Positions 19,570 through 27,550 of a stretch of DNA of 64,000 bases are shown here, piece by piece. The stretch is from the NCBI GenBank assembly GCA_041500805.1, contig JBGQMX010000002.1, positions 7,640 through 71,639 of the forward strand. The letters are read 5' to 3'. Under the pieces are notes generated by a model that was not told where the DNA came from, did not search any database, and saw only the letters and a program-made list of their open reading frames with translations. The position numbers and the translations under genes were made by a program. This DNA comes from Methyloceanibacter sp. (GTDB lineage: Bacteria > Pseudomonadota > Alphaproteobacteria > Rhizobiales > Methyloligellaceae). Within the stretch, counting starts at the first letter, position 1; each line of letters starts with the position of its first letter.

Positions 19570-20679
19570 TCAACGGACCAGGATGGCGTGATTGTCCCAC
19601 TGAAAGCCGGAAGGCTTCCGGTCCATGGTGCCATTGACGTCGTTGGTGGCAAGCCAGCCCTCGCCGCTTGTCAGCAAGAAGCTCGCGCTGTGATGGGTGG
19701 GTGCAAGCCCGCAGCCATCGTTCAGGTCGCAAGCCCCGAGGTAACGCCTTGCCGCCACGTCCCAATAGGTGATGAGGCCGCCCTTGGGCGCCGAGGCCGC
19801 AACGATGCTGCCGCCGCTATCGGCGGCGACCGAGCCGACATAGTTGCGCAAGCCCGCTTGCGTCTCGCTTCCGGCCTCCACGATCACCGGCGTCTCGCCG
19901 CGGCGGTGAAAGCCGACAAGCGGCGGCGCATCCTGCTCGGGTCCCCGATATTGGCAGCCGAACACGACCGTATCGCCAGCCGCGACAGAGAGATGGCGGA
20001 TCGAGAGCTGATGCAGCTCGGGCGCGAGAATATGCTCCTCGAGGAGGTCGCCGGTCGCGGCATCGACATAGACCAGCGACGGCCGCATGTCGGGCAAGTT
20101 CAGCTCCTCGACGCCTCTATCGGGGTGAGTGCGGATGCCGCCATTGGCGATCACCATGGTGCGGCCGTCGGCAAGGAGCGCGATGTCGTGAGGCTCCATG
20201 CCATAGGCGGAGAACTCGCCGATCTGCCGGTAGCCATCGGTCGCGTCGCGCACGCCGATGACGCCTGCCGCGCGCTCATAGTCGTTCTCGGTGGCATAGA
20301 GCAGTCTGCCGTCGGCGGAGTAGACGCCGTGGCCGAAGAAATGGCGGTCGGGCTTAGAGGCGAACCACACCGGCGGGCGGGTTCCGACCGGGACCGCAAC
20401 GCCGAAGCGGCCGGGGCGCCGGGCAAAGGCGACCCATTGGCTGCCGTCGGGGCTGAGCGCCACGTCGTGGCCACGGCCAGGAAGCTCTATCGCGCGCACA
20501 TCGCCATCGAGGCTGAACAAAGCCGCCGAGTAGGTGCCCCTGTCATCCTTGCGCGCCGCGGCGAAGACTTCGGCGCTGAAAGGTCCGGCGCCCAAGGCGG
20601 CGACCGCATCTCCTGGCAGGGCCAGCATGGCGGCGCTGCTCGCGAGGCTCAAGAGAAAGCTCCTTCGGTCGAGCTGCAT
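19570..20679 (-). CDS. DUF1513-family Tat-exported beta-propeller-like protein
   Basis: MQLDRRSFLL twin-arginine leader; RGHDVA, HFFGHGVYSADGRLLYATEND, ANGGIRTHP, LSIRHL and WDNH motifs. Confidence 0.88.
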   Translation of the reverse strand: MQLDRRSFLLSLASSAAMLALPGDAVAALGAGPFSAEVFAAARKDDRGTYSAALFSLDGDVRAIELPGRGHDVALSPDGSQWVAFARRPGRFGVAVPVGTRPPVWFASKPDRHFFGHGVYSADGRLLYATENDYERAAGVIGVRDATDGYRQIGEFSAYGMEPHDIALLADGRTMVIANGGIRTHPDRGVEELNLPDMRPSLVYVDAATGDLLEEHILAPELHQLSIRHLSVAAGDTVVFGCQYRGPEQDAPPLVGFHRRGETPVIVEAGSETQAGLRNYVGSVAADSGGSIVAASAPKGGLITYWDVAARRYLGACDLNDGCGLAPTHHSASFLLTSGEGWLATNDVNGTMDRKPSGFQWDNHAILVR

Positions 20680-20681
20680 GA

Positions 20682-21734
20682 CTAATCTCCATCCATGGCA
20701 TTGAAACCGAAGGCCAGCCCAGCGCCCCGCGAGATCATGTCGCCAGCGGTTTGGCCCGCGCTTTTCAACGAGACGCGCAAGGCTTCGAGCTTGGCGCGCA
20801 AGCCATCGTTCTTGACGACTTCGGCGATCGGCTTGTTCATCCCGCGCAAGACCTCGATGGCGTGGTCGAGGTCGAACAGGATCGAGTCCTCCACCCCGGG
20901 GGATTCTGCCGCCACCACTTGGGCGAACCCGCCATGGGCGAACAGCGCGCGGACGCCTTCGAGATTGCCGGCGGCGTTGGCGAAGGTGAGTCCGCTCCGC
21001 CAGAAGGCCGCAAGCTTGAGCTTGGCTTCCTCGGGCTTCGCTCCGAGCGGCTTCCCGAGCTTCTGATCGCGCACGAGCTCGATGCCCGAGGCGAAGGCCT
21101 TGAACAGATCGAGGGTCACCTCCTTCGAGGCATGGTAGACGGGATCGGACGGGGTGGGGTCGAGATAGACCTTGGTGAAGGGCGCGGCCTCGCTCCACCC
21201 CTCCACCAGCTCCTTGGCGATGGCGTCGACATTGGCGGCAATGCTCGCGGCGAAGCGGCAGCGGAAGGCACCATCGCCTCCACCTTTGGCGAGGGCGTCC
21301 GCGCCGTCGCCATAAAGCAGCTCTTCGAGCGCGGGCAGGCCCTGCAGCGCCACGCTCTTGGCCGCCAGGCTTTGCGGGGTCGTCACCGTTTCGTCCTTGG
21401 TGGCAAGCACATCGCGAACCTGCTTCAGGCCGAGCCCCTTGGGATCCGGCCAATAGAACAGGCGCTCGTAGCGGCGGTCTTGGGTCACCGGACCGAAGCG
21501 CAAGATCTCGACCTTGCTCCAGGCGCCGACCGAGGCGGCGAAGGCCTCCTCGGCGTCTTTGAGGGCGGCGGAAGAAGGCTGCTGGCACAGGGCTTGGACT
21601 TTGGTGCTGAGGGCGCCCGTCGTTTCGGCAAGTGCTGAATAGCCGGGGCGGATGAAATTGCTAAGGGCCGCGCGCGTGATGCCGGCGTAGTCCGTCTCGG
21701 CGTGGCTGGGAGCGATCCACGTCACCGAGGCCAA
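20682..21734 (-). CDS. Imelysin-family (peptidase M75-like) protein; 5' end uncertain, see findings
   Basis: FGPVTQDRRYERLFYWPD and SVALQGLPALEELLY motifs, GFNAMDGD end. A signal-peptide h-region extends upstream of TTG 21734 with no in-frame ATG. Confidence 0.82.
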   Translation of the reverse strand: MASVTWIAPSHAETDYAGITRAALSNFIRPGYSALAETTGALSTKVQALCQQPSSAALKDAEEAFAASVGAWSKVEILRFGPVTQDRRYERLFYWPDPKGLGLKQVRDVLATKDETVTTPQSLAAKSVALQGLPALEELLYGDGADALAKGGGDGAFRCRFAASIAANVDAIAKELVEGWSEAAPFTKVYLDPTPSDPVYHASKEVTLDLFKAFASGIELVRDQKLGKPLGAKPEEAKLKLAAFWRSGLTFANAAGNLEGVRALFAHGGFAQVVAAESPGVEDSILFDLDHAIEVLRGMNKPIAEVVKNDGLRAKLEALRVSLKSAGQTAGDMISRGAGLAFGFNAMDGD

Positions 21735-21770
21735 TACGAGTGCAATCGAGAGGCTCTTGGATGCGGTCCC

Positions 21771-21920
21771 ACCCTCACCCGCCGACCAGCCTGCGGCTGC
21801 TCGGCACCCTCTCCCATCAAGGGAGAGGGGCTGGAGCTTGCGGCTCGCTCCGTTCCCCTCTCCCTCGTGGGAGAGGGTGGCTTGGACCTACGAACCGTGG
21901 GTCCAAGCCGGGTGAGGGGG
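21771..21920. repeat. Cruciform CCCTCTCCC/GGGAGAGGG palindromic element
   Basis: Outer CCCTCACCC/GGGTGAGGG arms; two CCCTCTCCC-loop-GGGAGAGGG hairpins (21807-21829, 21856-21877); extra GGCTTGGACC/GGTCCAAGCC hairpin. Confidence 0.88.
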
Positions 21921-21938
21921 TGACTGGTCAAATGAACC

Positions 21939-23519
21939 TCACAGCGAGCTCACGAAGGCGATCAGGGCGTCGCGGTCGGCCTTCGAGAGCTTGGTGAAGG
22001 CATCGCGCGGGCCTTGCGCTTCCCCGCCATGCCAGAGAATGGCCTCGGTCAAGCTCCGCGCCCGCCCGTCATGCAGAAACAGCGTGTGCCCGCTCACGAT
22101 CTCGGTCAGCCCCACGCCCCAGAGCGGAGGCGTGCGCCACTCATTCCCGCTCGCCTCGCCCTCGGGGCGGTTGTCGGCAAGGCCCTCGCCCATGTCGTGC
22201 AGCAGCATATCGGTATAGGGATAGATGAGCTGATGCGACAAACGCGGCTGGCCGGCCACCTCGCCGGTCACGAATTTCGGCTTGTGGCAGCTTGCGCAGC
22301 CGATCCTGTAGAACAGCTCCTTGCCCTTCAGCACCTCGGGGTCGTCGGGCTTCCGCCGCGCCGGCACGGCGAGGTTCTGCGAATAGAACGCGACCAGCTT
22401 GAACAGGTCATCGCCCACCTCGACATTCTGATATTTCGGCGAGTCGCCGCTCGGCGCGTCGAGGCAGTCCTTCTCCTTGTCAGTGCAGTCGCCCGATCCA
22501 TGCGGGATCATGGTCGTGGACAGGCCGATATCGCCGTTGAAGGCCTCCGCCGCCTGTTGCGCGATGGTCGGCACGCCCGCCTTCCAGCCGAAGCGGCCGA
22601 GCATCACCTTGCCGTGCTCGCGCGACCACACGCGGTTCGGCTTGCCGGAGATGCCGTCCTTGTCGGCGTCGTCGGGATCGGCGTTGCTGAGGATCTGCTC
22701 CTCGGGCACGGCTTCGAGCAGACCGAGGCCGATCATCGGCGGGGCCACGCGCGGTGAGAGCATAATGTCGGGGCTCGTCGGACCGTAGGCGAGGTCGGTC
22801 AAGGCGTAGCTCGGCGTGCGCAAAGACACGCTCTCGCCGCCGGCGAGCTTCACCTTGTGCTCCTTGTAGACGATCTTCAGCTGCCCCTCGGGCTTGAAAC
22901 CCTGGATCGAGAAATTCTGCAGCTGGCCGCCATAGGTCGGATCGGGGATCGAGTTCACGCTATGGGCCTCGAGCTTCGCCTTCTCGTCGTCGGTTGCGGC
23001 GGGGACCGAGAGGCGGACCAGCATCGAGCCTGAATCGTCGGGGATGTCCGACGAGAGCGGAGGATGGCCTCGGCCGTCCTTCAAATGGCAGTTCTGGCAG
23101 GCGCGGGAGTTGAACAGAGGCCCGAGCCCGTCAGAGGCGTCGGTGGAGGACGGCGCTGAGACCCAGTTCTTGCGGAAGATGCCGTTGCCGATCTTGAAGT
23201 CGAGCTCGCGCATGAAGTCCATGTTGCCGGACGAGAGGGAGAAGGCATTGGCGTTGTCGACGCTGCCGCGGGAGGTGGCGCCGCCGCCGGGCTTGGCCTC
23301 GCCCTCTTCCAGCTTGGTGAAATCGGTGGTGGGCGGGAGCACGCTCTCAATCGCCGCCTCAGCCTCGGCTCCATAAGTCTGCCAGCTGCCGACCAGCAGC
23401 GGCAGAGCGGCGCCGAAGGCAATCGCGCCGGCAAGCCGGGCACGGCGTGCCTGCTTCAGCGATGCTTCCTTGGGCGACTCTGCGGCGCGATGGCGGGACC
23501 TGGAATGGGGTGTGTGCAC
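21939..23519 (-). CDS. Di-heme c-type oxidoreductase-family protein (DUF1111-like)
   Basis: Two heme motifs (CQNCH, CASCH); DGLGPLFN, GRFGWKA, WRTPPLWGVG and LHDGRAR...EAILWHGGEA motifs; GTG 23519 with AAGGA RBS. Confidence 0.9.
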   Translation of the reverse strand: MHTPHSRSRHRAAESPKEASLKQARRARLAGAIAFGAALPLLVGSWQTYGAEAEAAIESVLPPTTDFTKLEEGEAKPGGGATSRGSVDNANAFSLSSGNMDFMRELDFKIGNGIFRKNWVSAPSSTDASDGLGPLFNSRACQNCHLKDGRGHPPLSSDIPDDSGSMLVRLSVPAATDDEKAKLEAHSVNSIPDPTYGGQLQNFSIQGFKPEGQLKIVYKEHKVKLAGGESVSLRTPSYALTDLAYGPTSPDIMLSPRVAPPMIGLGLLEAVPEEQILSNADPDDADKDGISGKPNRVWSREHGKVMLGRFGWKAGVPTIAQQAAEAFNGDIGLSTTMIPHGSGDCTDKEKDCLDAPSGDSPKYQNVEVGDDLFKLVAFYSQNLAVPARRKPDDPEVLKGKELFYRIGCASCHKPKFVTGEVAGQPRLSHQLIYPYTDMLLHDMGEGLADNRPEGEASGNEWRTPPLWGVGLTEIVSGHTLFLHDGRARSLTEAILWHGGEAQGPRDAFTKLSKADRDALIAFVSSL

Positions 23520-23529
23520 TCGTCCTTCG

Positions 23530-24963
23530 TCAGAAACTGATGCTGGTGCGCGCGCCCACCACGGCAGCATTCTCGACCGCGCCGTTGCCGTCGTCATTGG
23601 GCACGTTGGCGCCGGGCTGGAAGAAGTATTGGAAATCCGGCTGCAACGTCCAGCCAGGCTTGATTTGATAGGTGTAGCAGATCTCGATCAGCGCCTCGTA
23701 ATTGCGCGCGACCGGCTGATCAAGATCGATATCTAAACCATGCGCCTCGTCGGAGATGCCGGTATAGGCGAAGCCGATGGCGAGCGCATCGGCGGGGCGC
23801 CCAGGGATCATGCCGGTGAAGGTGACGCCGCCATCGGCATAAAAATCGACGACGTTGCGGTCGGATGGCGCGCCGATGACACGGCCGAAAATGCCGACCC
23901 CCACCGGGTCCTTGCTGCCAGGCACGCGCCAGACCAGCTGATCGATGATGCCGTAGAAGCCCCAATCGTTGTCGAGCGGACGGCCCGGATTGCCGGTCAC
24001 GGCGATGGGCGCGCTGCGGGAATCGAAGCGCAGGTGCTCGAAGGTACCGAAATGATTCCACCCGCCGAGCTTCAGCGTGCCAGGGAGGACCTCTTGTTGA
24101 TTGTACTTATAGTCGCCTTCGACCATCAGCAGCGGAGGCGAGTCGAGCCGGAAGTCGAGCCCATCGTTGTTGCACTTCTGCGGGTCGCCGGTGCAGTTGG
24201 GCGGCGCCGAATCGCCGTTATAGACGCCGATCAGAAGCGCAAGCTTGTCAGTCGGATTGATCGCGACGCGCACGCCAGGCGTGGCCAACGGATAGGCCGG
24301 ACCGCCACTTGGCAGGTCGGCGGCGATGATGGTCGGCCAACCCCAGGTGCCATTCAGGAACCAGCCGCCGCCCTGGCTGATGATGAAGTCGGCGTCGGCG
24401 CCAAGCTGCCCGAACTTAATGGCGAGCTTGTCATCGTACAGGTGCTGTTCGAACCAAAGTTCGAACAGGCGGGTGGCGTCCGTCGCCTCGAGATTGCTCA
24501 CCGGCATCAGGCTGAGGATATTGGCGGCGGTGATGCCGTTGCCGTGAATCTGGAAGCCATCGACGTGGAAGCAGAGGCCCTTCCACAGGCCGAGCTTCTG
24601 CATGTCGGCATTGATGTGAAGCTCGAGCACGCCGTCATATTCGACGCCCTGCTTGAAGCCGCCCCAATTGCCGAAGGACTCGCCGTAATAGGTGCCGCCC
24701 ACGCCGATGCCGCCCTTGGCAAGGGCCTGGCGCACACCGCCTGGGTCCATCTTGAAGGCTGCGTCGTCTGGAATTCCGCTATCGGTCACGGCGCAATTGG
24801 CGCTCGCCGCCGTGGGAGCTGCCCAGAGCGAAGCGGCCGTGGAGACGGCGCCGAGGGCGCGCAACAGGCTTGCGCCCCATGCCGGGCCGCGCCCGCCAGA
24901 GCAACGGCTTGAAGAAGATCGCCGTGTTGCAAGATCGTCCGGCGTGATTCGCCTGCCAGTCAC
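23530..24963 (-). CDS. OprB-family outer-membrane porin
   Basis: Signal-like leader; RLFELWFEQ, IKFGQLGADADF, GGPAYPLATPGVR and LQPDFQY motifs; C-terminal aromatic beta-signal (GARTSISF). Confidence 0.9.
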   Translation of the reverse strand: MTGRRITPDDLATRRSSSSRCSGGRGPAWGASLLRALGAVSTAASLWAAPTAASANCAVTDSGIPDDAAFKMDPGGVRQALAKGGIGVGGTYYGESFGNWGGFKQGVEYDGVLELHINADMQKLGLWKGLCFHVDGFQIHGNGITAANILSLMPVSNLEATDATRLFELWFEQHLYDDKLAIKFGQLGADADFIISQGGGWFLNGTWGWPTIIAADLPSGGPAYPLATPGVRVAINPTDKLALLIGVYNGDSAPPNCTGDPQKCNNDGLDFRLDSPPLLMVEGDYKYNQQEVLPGTLKLGGWNHFGTFEHLRFDSRSAPIAVTGNPGRPLDNDWGFYGIIDQLVWRVPGSKDPVGVGIFGRVIGAPSDRNVVDFYADGGVTFTGMIPGRPADALAIGFAYTGISDEAHGLDIDLDQPVARNYEALIEICYTYQIKPGWTLQPDFQYFFQPGANVPNDDGNGAVENAAVVGARTSISF

Positions 24964-25011
24964 GATTGAAGCCCCCCAAGGCTTTGCTTCAGTTCAGTTT
25001 CGTAGCATTTT

Positions 25012-25026
25012 TGTTATGTTATAACA
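25012..25026. promoter_or_regulatory. Zur-type operator (perfect 6-3-6 inverted repeat)
   Basis: TGTTAT-GTT-ATAACA, about 50 nt upstream of the porin start, in an AT-rich patch. Confidence 0.7.
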
Positions 25027-25050
25027 CATGCCTTAACCCTGCTCCCCGCG

Positions 25051-26385
25051 TCAATGCGGTTCTCCACCTCCATCGCTCGCGGCTTTGCTCTCCTGTGGCA
25101 CCTTCGCCGGATTGTCGAGGCTGTCGGAGCCTTCGAACTGGATCGCCTTGAGATCGAGGGTAGCGACGGCGCGCTCGAGCGACTTCGTCTGGTCGAGAAG
25201 GGAATCGATGGCGTGCTGCACGACAGCGTTGCCCGCGTCGTTCCCCTCGCCGATCATCTGGTCGTAGGACTCGGTGGTCAGCGCGCGGAGATAGAGCGTA
25301 TTCATCGCACCCATGGTCGCGTCGAGCTTCGCGCGTATCTCGGCATCGACCTCAGGCGCCTTCGCCTTCACGAGATCGGACACGCTCGGGCCCTGCACCA
25401 GAGACCCGTCGGCACGGCGATAGCGGCCGATATAGACGTTACGGATGCCGAGCGCGTCGAAGAAGTGCGAGGCATGCGTGTTGTCGGAGAAGCAGTCATG
25501 CTCCTCCTCGGGATCGTGGATCATGAGGCCGAGCTTCATGCGCTCGCCGGCGAGCTCGCCGTAAGAGAGGCTGCCGAGCCCGGTCATGATGGCGACGAGC
25601 CCATCCTGGTCTTTGCCGTCCATCAGCTTCTTGCGCGCCGCGCCGTCGGGGCCCCACTGGGCCGCCATAAAGGCGAGATCGTCGACGAGAAGATCGGTGA
25701 CGGTGCTGAGATATTGAGCGCGCCGCGCGCAATTCCCGTTGGTGCATTTCTTGGCGTCGTAATCGCTTGCCGGGCGATGGCCGTTGCCGGGACCGGTGCC
25801 GTTCAGGTCTTGGCCCCACAGCAGAAACTCGACGGCGTGGTAGCCGGTGGCGACATTGGCCTCCACGCCTCCGGCCTCTTGCAGCTGGCCGGCGAGGAGC
25901 GCCTTGGTGATCTTGGTGGCGTTGAGCTTCTTGCCGCCGATAGTCAGGGAAGGGTTGGCGATGACATTGGCGACATAAAGCTCGTTCTCAGGGGAGTCAG
26001 CCCCATAGGACGGGGCGACATAGTCGATCAGCCCCTCATCCAGCGGCCAGGAGTTCACCCTGTCTTGCCAGTCGTCGACGATGGCGTTGCCGAAGCGGTA
26101 GGCTTCGGTCTGCATGTAGGGGATGCGGGCGGCGATCCAGGCGGCGCGGGCGGAGCGAAGATTGTCCTCGGTCGGCTTGGCGAGGACGGCGTCGACCGCG
26201 AGCTTCAGCGTTCTGGCGGTATCGAGGGAGTCCGAGTAGCCGGCCTCGGCCATGTCGACGTAGGTCTTCAGCACATCCTTGGGTGTGGGCTCGGCCACGG
26301 CGGGCGAGATCCCAACTCCAGTCGCAAGGCCTAGGCAGAGAGTGGCAGCGGCGAACGGCCGGGCCATCGTCAATCGTCCAAACAT
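25051..26385 (-). CDS. Imelysin-family protein (IrpA/iron-regulated protein A-like)
   Basis: Sec signal (PAVA); VNSWPLDEGLIDYV, TGYHAVEFLLWGQD and EEEHDCFSDNTH motifs; start at ATG 26385. Confidence 0.92.
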   Translation of the reverse strand: MFGRLTMARPFAAATLCLGLATGVGISPAVAEPTPKDVLKTYVDMAEAGYSDSLDTARTLKLAVDAVLAKPTEDNLRSARAAWIAARIPYMQTEAYRFGNAIVDDWQDRVNSWPLDEGLIDYVAPSYGADSPENELYVANVIANPSLTIGGKKLNATKITKALLAGQLQEAGGVEANVATGYHAVEFLLWGQDLNGTGPGNGHRPASDYDAKKCTNGNCARRAQYLSTVTDLLVDDLAFMAAQWGPDGAARKKLMDGKDQDGLVAIMTGLGSLSYGELAGERMKLGLMIHDPEEEHDCFSDNTHASHFFDALGIRNVYIGRYRRADGSLVQGPSVSDLVKAKAPEVDAEIRAKLDATMGAMNTLYLRALTTESYDQMIGEGNDAGNAVVQHAIDSLLDQTKSLERAVATLDLKAIQFEGSDSLDNPAKVPQESKAASDGGGEPH

Positions 26386-26629
26386 CGGCACCCCTTCGCC
26401 GGGGCTCCCGCCCGGTCTTCGCCAGCGAAGCCGCCAGCAGGCGACAGGAATGCGGCGGCCCTCGGGCCGAAACCGTCGGACCGCCGCAAGTTGAGATGAG
26501 GAAGCGTCCGCTTGGTTGGCCTTGGACGCTTCAGGCCTCCGGGCTGGGCAGCCGGATGCCTTGTCAAAGCCATAGCGCAAACAGTAACATGCACGTAGTG
26601 AACTCTTTTCAGCGGAATTGTTGCATACC

Positions 26630-27550
26630 ATGCACTTAAAGGAAGTCGATGCCAATCTGCTCGTGACGCTGGACGCGCTGCTCGTGGACGCAAGCGTGAC
26701 CCGCGCCGCCGAGCGGCTGGGGAGAAGCGCCTCGGCCATCAGCCATGCGCTGGCCAAGCTCCGCGAAATCTTCGCCGACGAGCTCTTCGTCCGCGCGGGT
26801 CAGCGTCTCGTGCCGACCGCCAAGGCCCTGGAGCTTGCGCCCACCGTCCATGTGATCCTGGCCGGCATGGAAAGCCTGCTCAGGCCGAGCCAGCCGTTCG
26901 ACGCATCGCTTGCCATGCGCGACTTCGCCATGGCCGCGAGCGAGGCGGGCGAGCTCATTCTGGTGCAGCCGCTTCGCCAGCGCCTGCAACATCTTGCACC
27001 GAGCGTGCATGTCGACTGGATGCCGTCCCATCGCGACGAGAGTTCCGACGCGCTCCGCCACGGCCGTTGCCATTTCGTGATCGACATCGAGGGAGCGAGC
27101 GTTCCGGCGGCTGACATCCGCGTGCTCAAGCTGTTCGACGACCGGCTCGCCACGCTCGGCCGCCCGGGGCATCCTTTCGCTCAGCGGAAGCCCAAGGCCG
27201 CCGCCTTCGCCGCCGCTGACCATATCGCGGTGAATTCGCTTCCCGCCATCGAGCTGATCGACCGCGAGCTTGCCGCGGGAAAGCTCAGCTGCAGCATCGT
27301 CTCGCGCGTTTCCTCGGTACTGGTCGGCCTTTTGCTCGCGCTCAACAGCGACGCGCTGCTCACGCTGCCGGCGTCCCTGGCGCTGATCATCGAGAAGCAG
27401 TTCGGGCTTGTCCGCATTTTCCAGCCGTTCGGCCCGATCGCTTTCCCGTTAAGGCTGCTCTGGCATTCAAGCTATGACCGCGACGAGTGCCATGAATGGG
27501 TGCGCGGCGAGCTGGTCGGTCTCGCGCGGGAGATCGAAAGCGCCGCTTGA
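26630..27550 (+). CDS. LysR-family transcriptional regulator (NodD/LeuO/MexT-like subgroup)
   Basis: DANLLVTLDALLVDASVTRAAERLGRSASAISHALAKLR HTH; LFVRAGQRLVPT; divergent from the imelysin cluster. Confidence 0.92.
   Translation: MHLKEVDANLLVTLDALLVDASVTRAAERLGRSASAISHALAKLREIFADELFVRAGQRLVPTAKALELAPTVHVILAGMESLLRPSQPFDASLAMRDFAMAASEAGELILVQPLRQRLQHLAPSVHVDWMPSHRDESSDALRHGRCHFVIDIEGASVPAADIRVLKLFDDRLATLGRPGHPFAQRKPKAAAFAAADHIAVNSLPAIELIDRELAAGKLSCSIVSRVSSVLVGLLLALNSDALLTLPASLALIIEKQFGLVRIFQPFGPIAFPLRLLWHSSYDRDECHEWVRGELVGLAREIESAA

Follow-up and report, generated by a model that had tools for sequence, protein, structure and literature searches.

A predicted Zur operator ahead of an OprB-family porin gene and imelysin/DUF1111/DUF1513 module genes in Methyloceanibacter

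The porin locus and its palindrome

The window analysed here, a 64-kb stretch of DNA from a Methyloceanibacter genome, carries on its minus strand a set of genes whose order, by Pfam assignment, is imelysin, DUF1111, imelysin and DUF1513, all encoding exported proteins, with an OprB porin gene inserted behind the first imelysin. The palindrome TGTTATGTTATAACA lies at 25012-25026, between imelysin-1 and the gene for the OprB-family porin, both of which are on the minus strand. The features of the locus are listed below in the order of transcription of the cluster, preceded by the divergent regulator gene.

26618-27550, plus strand: LysR-type regulator, divergent from imelysin-1 (Pfam HTH_1 and LysR_substrate)
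26426-26570, minus strand: conserved structured 5' leader of imelysin-1, with three hairpins, separate from the Zur box
25051-26385, minus strand: imelysin-1 (Pfam Peptidase_M75, 271 bits), the gene upstream of the box
25012-25026, minus strand: Zur box, a predicted operator reading TGTTATAACATAACA on the coding strand, called from the genome scan and conservation
24972-24977, minus strand: porin ribosome-binding site GGGGGG, 8 nt ahead of the GTG start at 24963
23530-24963, minus strand: OprB-family outer-membrane porin (Pfam OprB, 272 bits), first gene of the predicted Zur-controlled unit
21939-23597, minus strand: di-haem oxidoreductase, DHOR/DUF1111 (Pfam DHOR, 328 bits)
20682-21734, minus strand: second imelysin, IPPA-like (Pfam Peptidase_M75, 155 bits)
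19570-20607, minus strand: DUF1513 protein (Pfam DUF1513, 359 bits), last gene of the unit

The palindrome is a perfect 6-3-6 repeat that also satisfies the pattern GTTA-N5-TAAC, and it is the sole match to TGTTAT-N3-ATAACA with up to two mismatches in the 64-kb window; the chance expectation from the shuffled window is 0.09 matches, with one match in 9 of 100 shuffles. It is located inside the 87-nt spacer that runs from the imelysin-1 stop codon to the porin GTG start, and its end is 48 nt from the porin start codon, a distance of 21-87 nt in relatives. A preliminary description of this DNA had reported a TGTTAT-GTT-ATAACA box between the first imelysin and the porin, together with a TTGACG hexamer further upstream. 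The position of the box is exact and the Pfam matches identify the flanking genes as described, and the hexamer is present on the coding strand at 25054-25049, 22 nt ahead of the box.

The OprB domain of the porin is full-length, covering profile positions 1-372 of 372 in PF04966 at 272 bits, and the arrangement of CCTTGGGGGGC, then 7-8 nt, then the start codon is kept across the porins of relatives. The open frame of the DHOR gene overlaps the 3' end of the porin gene, and the same overlap is seen in relatives. Between the DHOR stop codon and imelysin-2, at 21766-21924, there is a nested palindromic (REP-like) element, and the 5' end of imelysin-2 is disturbed; the frame retains its signal-peptide core, and from an upstream TAG to the TTG at 21734 it offers no start codon. 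This gene may be damaged at its 5' end, or its start codon may be unusual.

At the head of the cluster, the divergent arrangement of the LysR gene and imelysin-1 is conserved in the genus together with a motif in the spacer between them (26571-26640), where a genus-wide conserved block, AATTCTGCTGAAAAGAGTTCACT, is flanked by TGCAT repeats. This block is probably a LysR binding site and would constitute a third input at the cluster head. The imelysin-1 leader is strongly conserved across the genus, with 17 of its 31 pairs showing compensatory changes, and nothing in Rfam matches it. It includes an invariant unpaired UUCCUCAUCUCAAC, its last hairpin resembles a weak terminator, and the leader occurs in one copy in the genome and was not seen in 20 other genera; it is possibly a new cis-regulatory RNA. 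The preliminary description had found no Irr box at the cluster head, and the observation extends to the entire window, in which the Irr-type box TTTRGAA-N3-TTCYAAA has no occurrence with up to three mismatches. No iron-type box was found at the cluster in this search with the Irr pattern, and no other result shows the iron control that a dual Fe/Zn switch, as suggested in the preliminary description, would require.

Zur sites in the genome and in the genus

Textbooks already describe Zur boxes and the autoregulation of zur-znu operons. The GTTA-N5-TAAC pattern is a conserved feature of Zur sites in many proteobacteria (PMC4176598), and the window box is similar to a 15-bp palindrome to which Paracoccus Zur binds (PMC5387054). 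The TGTTAT-N3-ATAACA core that had been put forward as typical of proteobacterial Zur boxes is consistent with this literature, as the box matches the GTTA-N5-TAAC of those sites (PMC4176598).

We scanned the Methyloceanibacter assembly (3.06 Mb in 201 contigs, 64% G+C), which is 93% complete, so that the scan may overlook further Zur sites. With at most one mismatch allowed there is one further site beyond 25012-25026, the sequence TGTTATGTTATATCA on contig C18, whose end is 6 nt ahead of the ATG of zur, the gene for a 135-aa Fur-family protein. A weight matrix scores the porin and zur sites at 29.1 and 26.4 bits and the next best site in the genome at 15.6, and both the two-site count and the score gap are far above chance. 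A reversed-pattern control returns 0-1 matches per genome, and the E. coli-derived search motif quoted in PMC6103462 agrees with the porin box at 17 of 20 positions and with the zur box at 18 of 20. The weaker matrix matches (C106:1889, C67:10100, C60:11575 and C17:20741) were rejected as Zur sites and taken as chance occurrences, their neighbours being unrelated (a Bmp-type binding protein, Clp_N, a glyoxalase, a sulfotransferase and a lytic transglycosylase). No Zur regulon beyond the porin and zur operators is detectable in this genome.

The 135-aa protein has Zur as its best NCBIfam match, and its PDB relatives at E < 0.01 are all Zur (7dh7, 4mtd, 3mwm, 7vo0 and 2o03). It is one of three Fur-family paralogues in the genome, the usual number. 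Downstream of zur the operon continues with an ABC ATPase, an ABC-3 permease and a ZnuA/AztC-type binding protein, the last being the only ZnuA-family member found in the assembly. A genome scan had been proposed as a check on the box, and its outcome is that the same box heads the genome's own zur-ATPase-permease-ZnuA/AztC operon. The box at the zur promoter is invariant in 30 of 30 genus relatives, and in all 30 the promoter reads CTTGAC-N17/18-TATATC with the box covering the spacer and the -10. The zur ATG is only a few bases past TATATC in 30 of 30 genomes (G000 contig C18:13713-13740; L001:6714-6740), which suggests a leaderless and autoregulated zur. In one relative (G001:C18:186102-186341, 189329-190614; L022/L029) part of a second zur-like gene lies about 3 kb from a porin copy that several stop codons interrupt.

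Porin orthologues in an imelysin-1/porin/DHOR arrangement are spread across Methyloceanibacter, and two independent searches, when pooled, yielded 45 distinct loci with imelysin-1/porin synteny. The box is present in the spacer of 28 of these, scoring at least 22 bits in 27 and 15.7 bits in the remaining one, and its orientation relative to the porin is identical in all 28; one box-bearing locus, L076, is that of M. superfactus R-67175, with the box CGTTATAACATAACA. An alignment anchored on the box gives 1.5-2 bits per position within it and less than 0.5 in the flanks, so as to define an island of 15-16 nt, and the box centre (AAC/GTT) is fixed within the genus. Conservation ahead of orthologous porins had also been named as a check, and the outcome is favourable, the box being kept in 28 of 45 loci with diverged flanks. 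No other box of 14 bits or more was seen in the 7.4-kb loci that were read, the region upstream of imelysin-1 included, and the predicted Zur control is therefore internal to the cluster. In the porin tree the boxed loci are basal and widespread, with the other states scattered among them. There are 13 loci of the 45 with neither a box nor a riboswitch, several with spacers of only 78-135 nt, so that transcription from the imelysin-1 promoter can by itself suffice for the porin.

Motif identity, position, conservation, the coherence of the regulon and the presence of a Zur orthologue are established by these comparisons. The box is most likely a genuine Zur operator, and one that likely acts on an internal promoter.

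The internal promoter and how Zur would act

The elements of the candidate promoter are as follows.

25049-25054, minus strand: TTGACG, probable -35, overlapping the TGA stop codon of imelysin-1
25023-25028, minus strand: TGTGTT, candidate -10, composed of the first 4 nt of the box and the 2 nt ahead of them

The relatives provide the clearest view of this promoter. In 17 of 28 loci an exact TTGAC precedes the box at a distance of no more than 40 nt, where 0.02 would be expected per window (binomial P ~4e-22, relatedness ignored), and in 16 of the 28 it is followed at 16-20 nt by a -10-like hexamer that overlaps the box edge. The TTGACG hexamer of the preliminary description thus gains support as a -35 from the 16 of 28 loci that have TTGAC at promoter spacing. 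At least nine loci have the TTGAC beyond the imelysin-1 stop codon, by 11-76 nt, where it cannot be put down to coding constraint. The -10-like hexamer consists of the two bases before the box and its first four, and reads NA(C/T)GTT in relatives, where the base directly before the box is A (1.6 bits); an A at -11 is a critical promoter position. In the window genome this base is G, and the promoter is non-consensus, with TTGACG, a 20-nt spacer and TGTGTT. The internal promoter is probably weak in the window genome because of the G in place of A before the box and the 20-nt spacer, and a simple sigma-70 scan reported no promoter at the box.

An alternative -10 could be read as TGnTATAAC at 25026-25018. 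We rejected the TATAAC inside the box as a partner of TTGACG, from which it is spaced by 25 nt in the window; in relatives it has no -35-like hexamer 16-19 nt before it, with a mean of 2.3 of 6 matches compared to 2.5 in controls.

The palindrome is, in our interpretation, the operator for the genome's own Zur and would overlap an internal sigma-70-type promoter in the 87-nt spacer. The -35 would be TTGACG at 25054-25049, the -10 would run into the left edge of the box, and transcription is predicted to start inside the box, with about 50 nt of 5' UTR. Bound to the box, a Zur dimer would then span roughly -10 to +5, the geometry seen at Caulobacter Zur-repressed genes, in which operators lie over the -10 or between the -35 and the -10 (PMC4176598). 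When zinc is sufficient, zinc-loaded Zur dimers on the box would block RNA polymerase, and bound Zur would probably impede transcription reading through from imelysin-1 as well. Under zinc scarcity, Zur would leave and the porin, DHOR, imelysin-2 and DUF1513 genes would be transcribed; the zur-ABC transporter operon, which has the box over its own -10, would be released simultaneously. Zur binding, promoter activity, the transcription start and zinc responsiveness are what we infer from motif, position and conservation. We regard it as highly probable that the box is a functional Zur operator that makes the porin and downstream genes zinc-repressed, and, within that reading, it is rather likely that it acts at a true internal promoter.

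The principal alternative is that Zur binds the box where there is no internal promoter and serves as a roadblock or gate on a transcript from the imelysin-1 promoter, in which case expression of the four genes behind the box would depend on zinc shortage together with the signal at the cluster head (LysR and the structured leader). A terminator scan found no terminator-like site after imelysin-1 as far as the porin, and this leaves room for read-through with Zur acting also as a roadblock; moreover, the 13 orthologous loci lacking any spacer element must be co-transcribed, and the window genome's own promoter elements are weak. Set against this are the exact TTGAC at promoter spacing in 16 of 28 loci, with at least nine outside the imelysin-1 reading frame, the conservation as a -11 A of the A before the box, the overlap of the same box with the -10 at the zur promoter, and the presence in riboswitch-type loci, described below, of their own TTGACA ahead of the riboswitch. 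We therefore consider a roadblock operating in place of an internal promoter to be unlikely.

A second alternative, that the palindrome is a chance AT-rich sequence or a site for Fur/Mur, Irr or the neighbouring LysR and is unrelated to zinc, derives some plausibility from the likeness of AT-rich palindromes across Fur-family boxes. It is nonetheless very improbable, given that there are just two such sites in 3.06 Mb, both at promoter positions, that the partner site is on zur itself, with further ones on ZnuD-like receptors in relatives, that the phylogenetic footprint of the box is strong, that the reversed pattern is all but absent from each genome, and that a conserved LysR-type motif is located elsewhere, at the cluster head. 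That Zur activates at this box, with expression of the unit at high zinc as for the zinc-export operons of Xanthomonas and Caulobacter, is the least credible reading of all, for although Zur can activate from sites upstream of the -35 (PMC4176598), the box here comes after the TTGAC -35 and is only 21-87 nt away from the start codon, which is the geometry of repressed genes, and the unit encodes an uptake-type porin and periplasmic proteins but no exporter.

Cobalamin riboswitches, ZnuD-like receptors and the role of the porin unit

In some sister species the spacer between imelysin-1 and the porin is occupied by a different regulatory element, a full cobalamin riboswitch (RF00174, 111-122 bits), which is present at L008, L009 (the same as L081), L014 and L016. 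These riboswitch-type spacers have their own TTGACA upstream of the riboswitch. A fifth species, L139 (100-300), retains only the 3' half of the riboswitch, and the riboswitch locus L014 has a decayed box of 12.6 bits just past the imelysin-1 stop codon. In genome G062 a second porin paralogue is present elsewhere in the genome with its own B12 riboswitch (L142:3001-3200, 113 bits). The window contains no match to RF00174 at Rfam gathering or E-value thresholds, and the only strong cobalamin riboswitch of the window genome precedes DUF1636-CobW of the B12 pathway. The association of a B12-controlled OprB porin with DHOR, imelysin and DUF1513 suggests uptake of cobalt or a corrinoid.

Two of the riboswitch-type genomes, G017 and G021, possess extra Zur boxes, located before a TonB-dependent receptor and before a DUF1826 gene. 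The receptor has ZnuD as its best NCBIfam match, at 264 bits (in G017 at L129:1945-4386). ZnuD-like receptors are found in only 6 of 61 genus genomes, which comprise three of the riboswitch type, one with the partial riboswitch, one without either element and one boxed, and a Zur-boxed ZnuD-like receptor is present in four of the five riboswitch-bearing genomes, counting the partial type. All five receptor loci with an available upstream region (L129, L132, L133, L134 and L135) have one or two boxes, and the boxes before these receptors are often two in tandem. A search of the window genome (the 93% complete assembly) returned no match to a ZnuD-like receptor.

A strict complementarity between ZnuD and the boxed porin does not hold, since both occur in G062, where ZnuD is split into three pieces, and since G068 combines ZnuD with a porin that has neither box nor riboswitch. 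The receptor distribution, uncorrected for relatedness, suggests that the boxed porin unit may be an outer-membrane zinc route where ZnuD is absent, and from the same distribution, likewise uncorrected, the porin unit may serve more than one divalent metal. The unit would most likely form the outer-membrane and periplasmic leg of zinc acquisition, a part that in some sister species would be played at the outer membrane by the ZnuD-like TonB-dependent receptor with its Zur box. That zinc is the substrate we infer from regulation alone.

Comparison with characterized zinc-uptake systems identifies both familiar and unfamiliar aspects. As with E. coli znuABC, Caulobacter znuK/L/GHI and the znuA/zur and aztABCD genes of Paracoccus denitrificans, there is an AT-rich inverted repeat with a GTTA-N5-TAAC core, the box is predicted to lie over the -10 of genes for zinc uptake, and zur and an ABC importer are under the same box (PMC4176598, PMC5387054, PMC6103462). 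Unlike those systems, the predicted target is an OprB porin with three genes of the imelysin/DUF1111/DUF1513 module, and only two operators are detected. Neisseria ZnuD and Caulobacter ZnuK/L/M provide precedents for an outer-membrane leg of zinc uptake under Zur control, which is predicted here to be direct, but the Methyloceanibacter unit would employ a passive OprB-type porin with periplasmic partners instead of an energised TonB-dependent receptor. Cyanobacterial OprB-domain porins (Anabaena Alr2231 and others) have been implicated in the passage of zinc, manganese, copper, cobalt or iron rather than in sugar uptake (PMC9705863); in contrast to the Anabaena porin-like genes, none of which was found to be Zur-regulated among those studied (PMC9705863), the Methyloceanibacter porin is a predicted direct Zur target.

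The module itself has been associated with iron. Fur regulates the imelysin/DUF1111/imelysin/DUF1513 operon of P. aeruginosa and V. cholerae, for which a role in iron uptake is proposed (PMC3143127), and ferrous iron uptake has been proposed for the EfeO-like/DUF1111/EfeO-like/DUF1513 operon (PMC3143127; bioRxiv 10.1101/072470), although Price and co-workers note that the substrate of the EfeO-like/DUF1111/DUF1513 operon is not certain (bioRxiv 10.1101/072470). The Methyloceanibacter cluster has the same four families in the same order as the PA4370-73 type of module, and differs from it by the inserted porin and by the placement of the last four genes behind a Zur box. In 20 other Hyphomicrobiales genera the canonical four-gene cluster is present with no porin, and GTTA-N5-TAAC is absent from these clusters in 19 of the genera, with one isolated match; DUF1513 is found in about half of the sampled Hyphomicrobiales genomes. 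Two of these 20 genera have a bacterioferritin gene in the porin slot between imelysin-1 and DHOR (L150:2949-3623 and L158:3144-3680).

Among distant OprB porins a Zur-like core was found upstream of only one, L101, in a proteobacterial MAG, where GTTATAACGTAAC (L101:1379-1393) is about 131 nt upstream of the start of a porin with 36% identity. Zur-controlled OprB porins may, to judge from this sequence, also occur outside the genus. A literature search found no link of imelysin, DUF1111 or DUF1513 with Zur, and no porin with a cobalamin riboswitch.

A broader interpretation, which we offer tentatively, is that the porin-DHOR-imelysin-DUF1513 unit could be a TonB-independent route for zinc, and not for iron, over the outer membrane and periplasm, carrying cobalt or a corrinoid in the riboswitch species, and that its input would have been swapped repeatedly within the genus between Zur, a cobalamin riboswitch and neither, with Zur control tending to go where a ZnuD-like receptor is present. 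If this is true, the substrate range of the widespread imelysin/DUF1111/DUF1513 module would be reassigned. Zur boxes are known, and what is new is the target, an OprB porin and module genes as a predicted member of the Zur regulon. The module has been classed as iron uptake mostly through Fur regulation in two gamma-proteobacteria and its substrate is unsettled, and the combination of a Zur operator here with a cobalamin riboswitch in sister species presents a testable handle on whether zinc, cobalt or iron is transported. The locus is also a natural case in which a single promoter slot has exchanged one regulatory input for another, and it suggests that in bacteria lacking ZnuD zinc may cross the outer membrane through a porin, independently of TonB.
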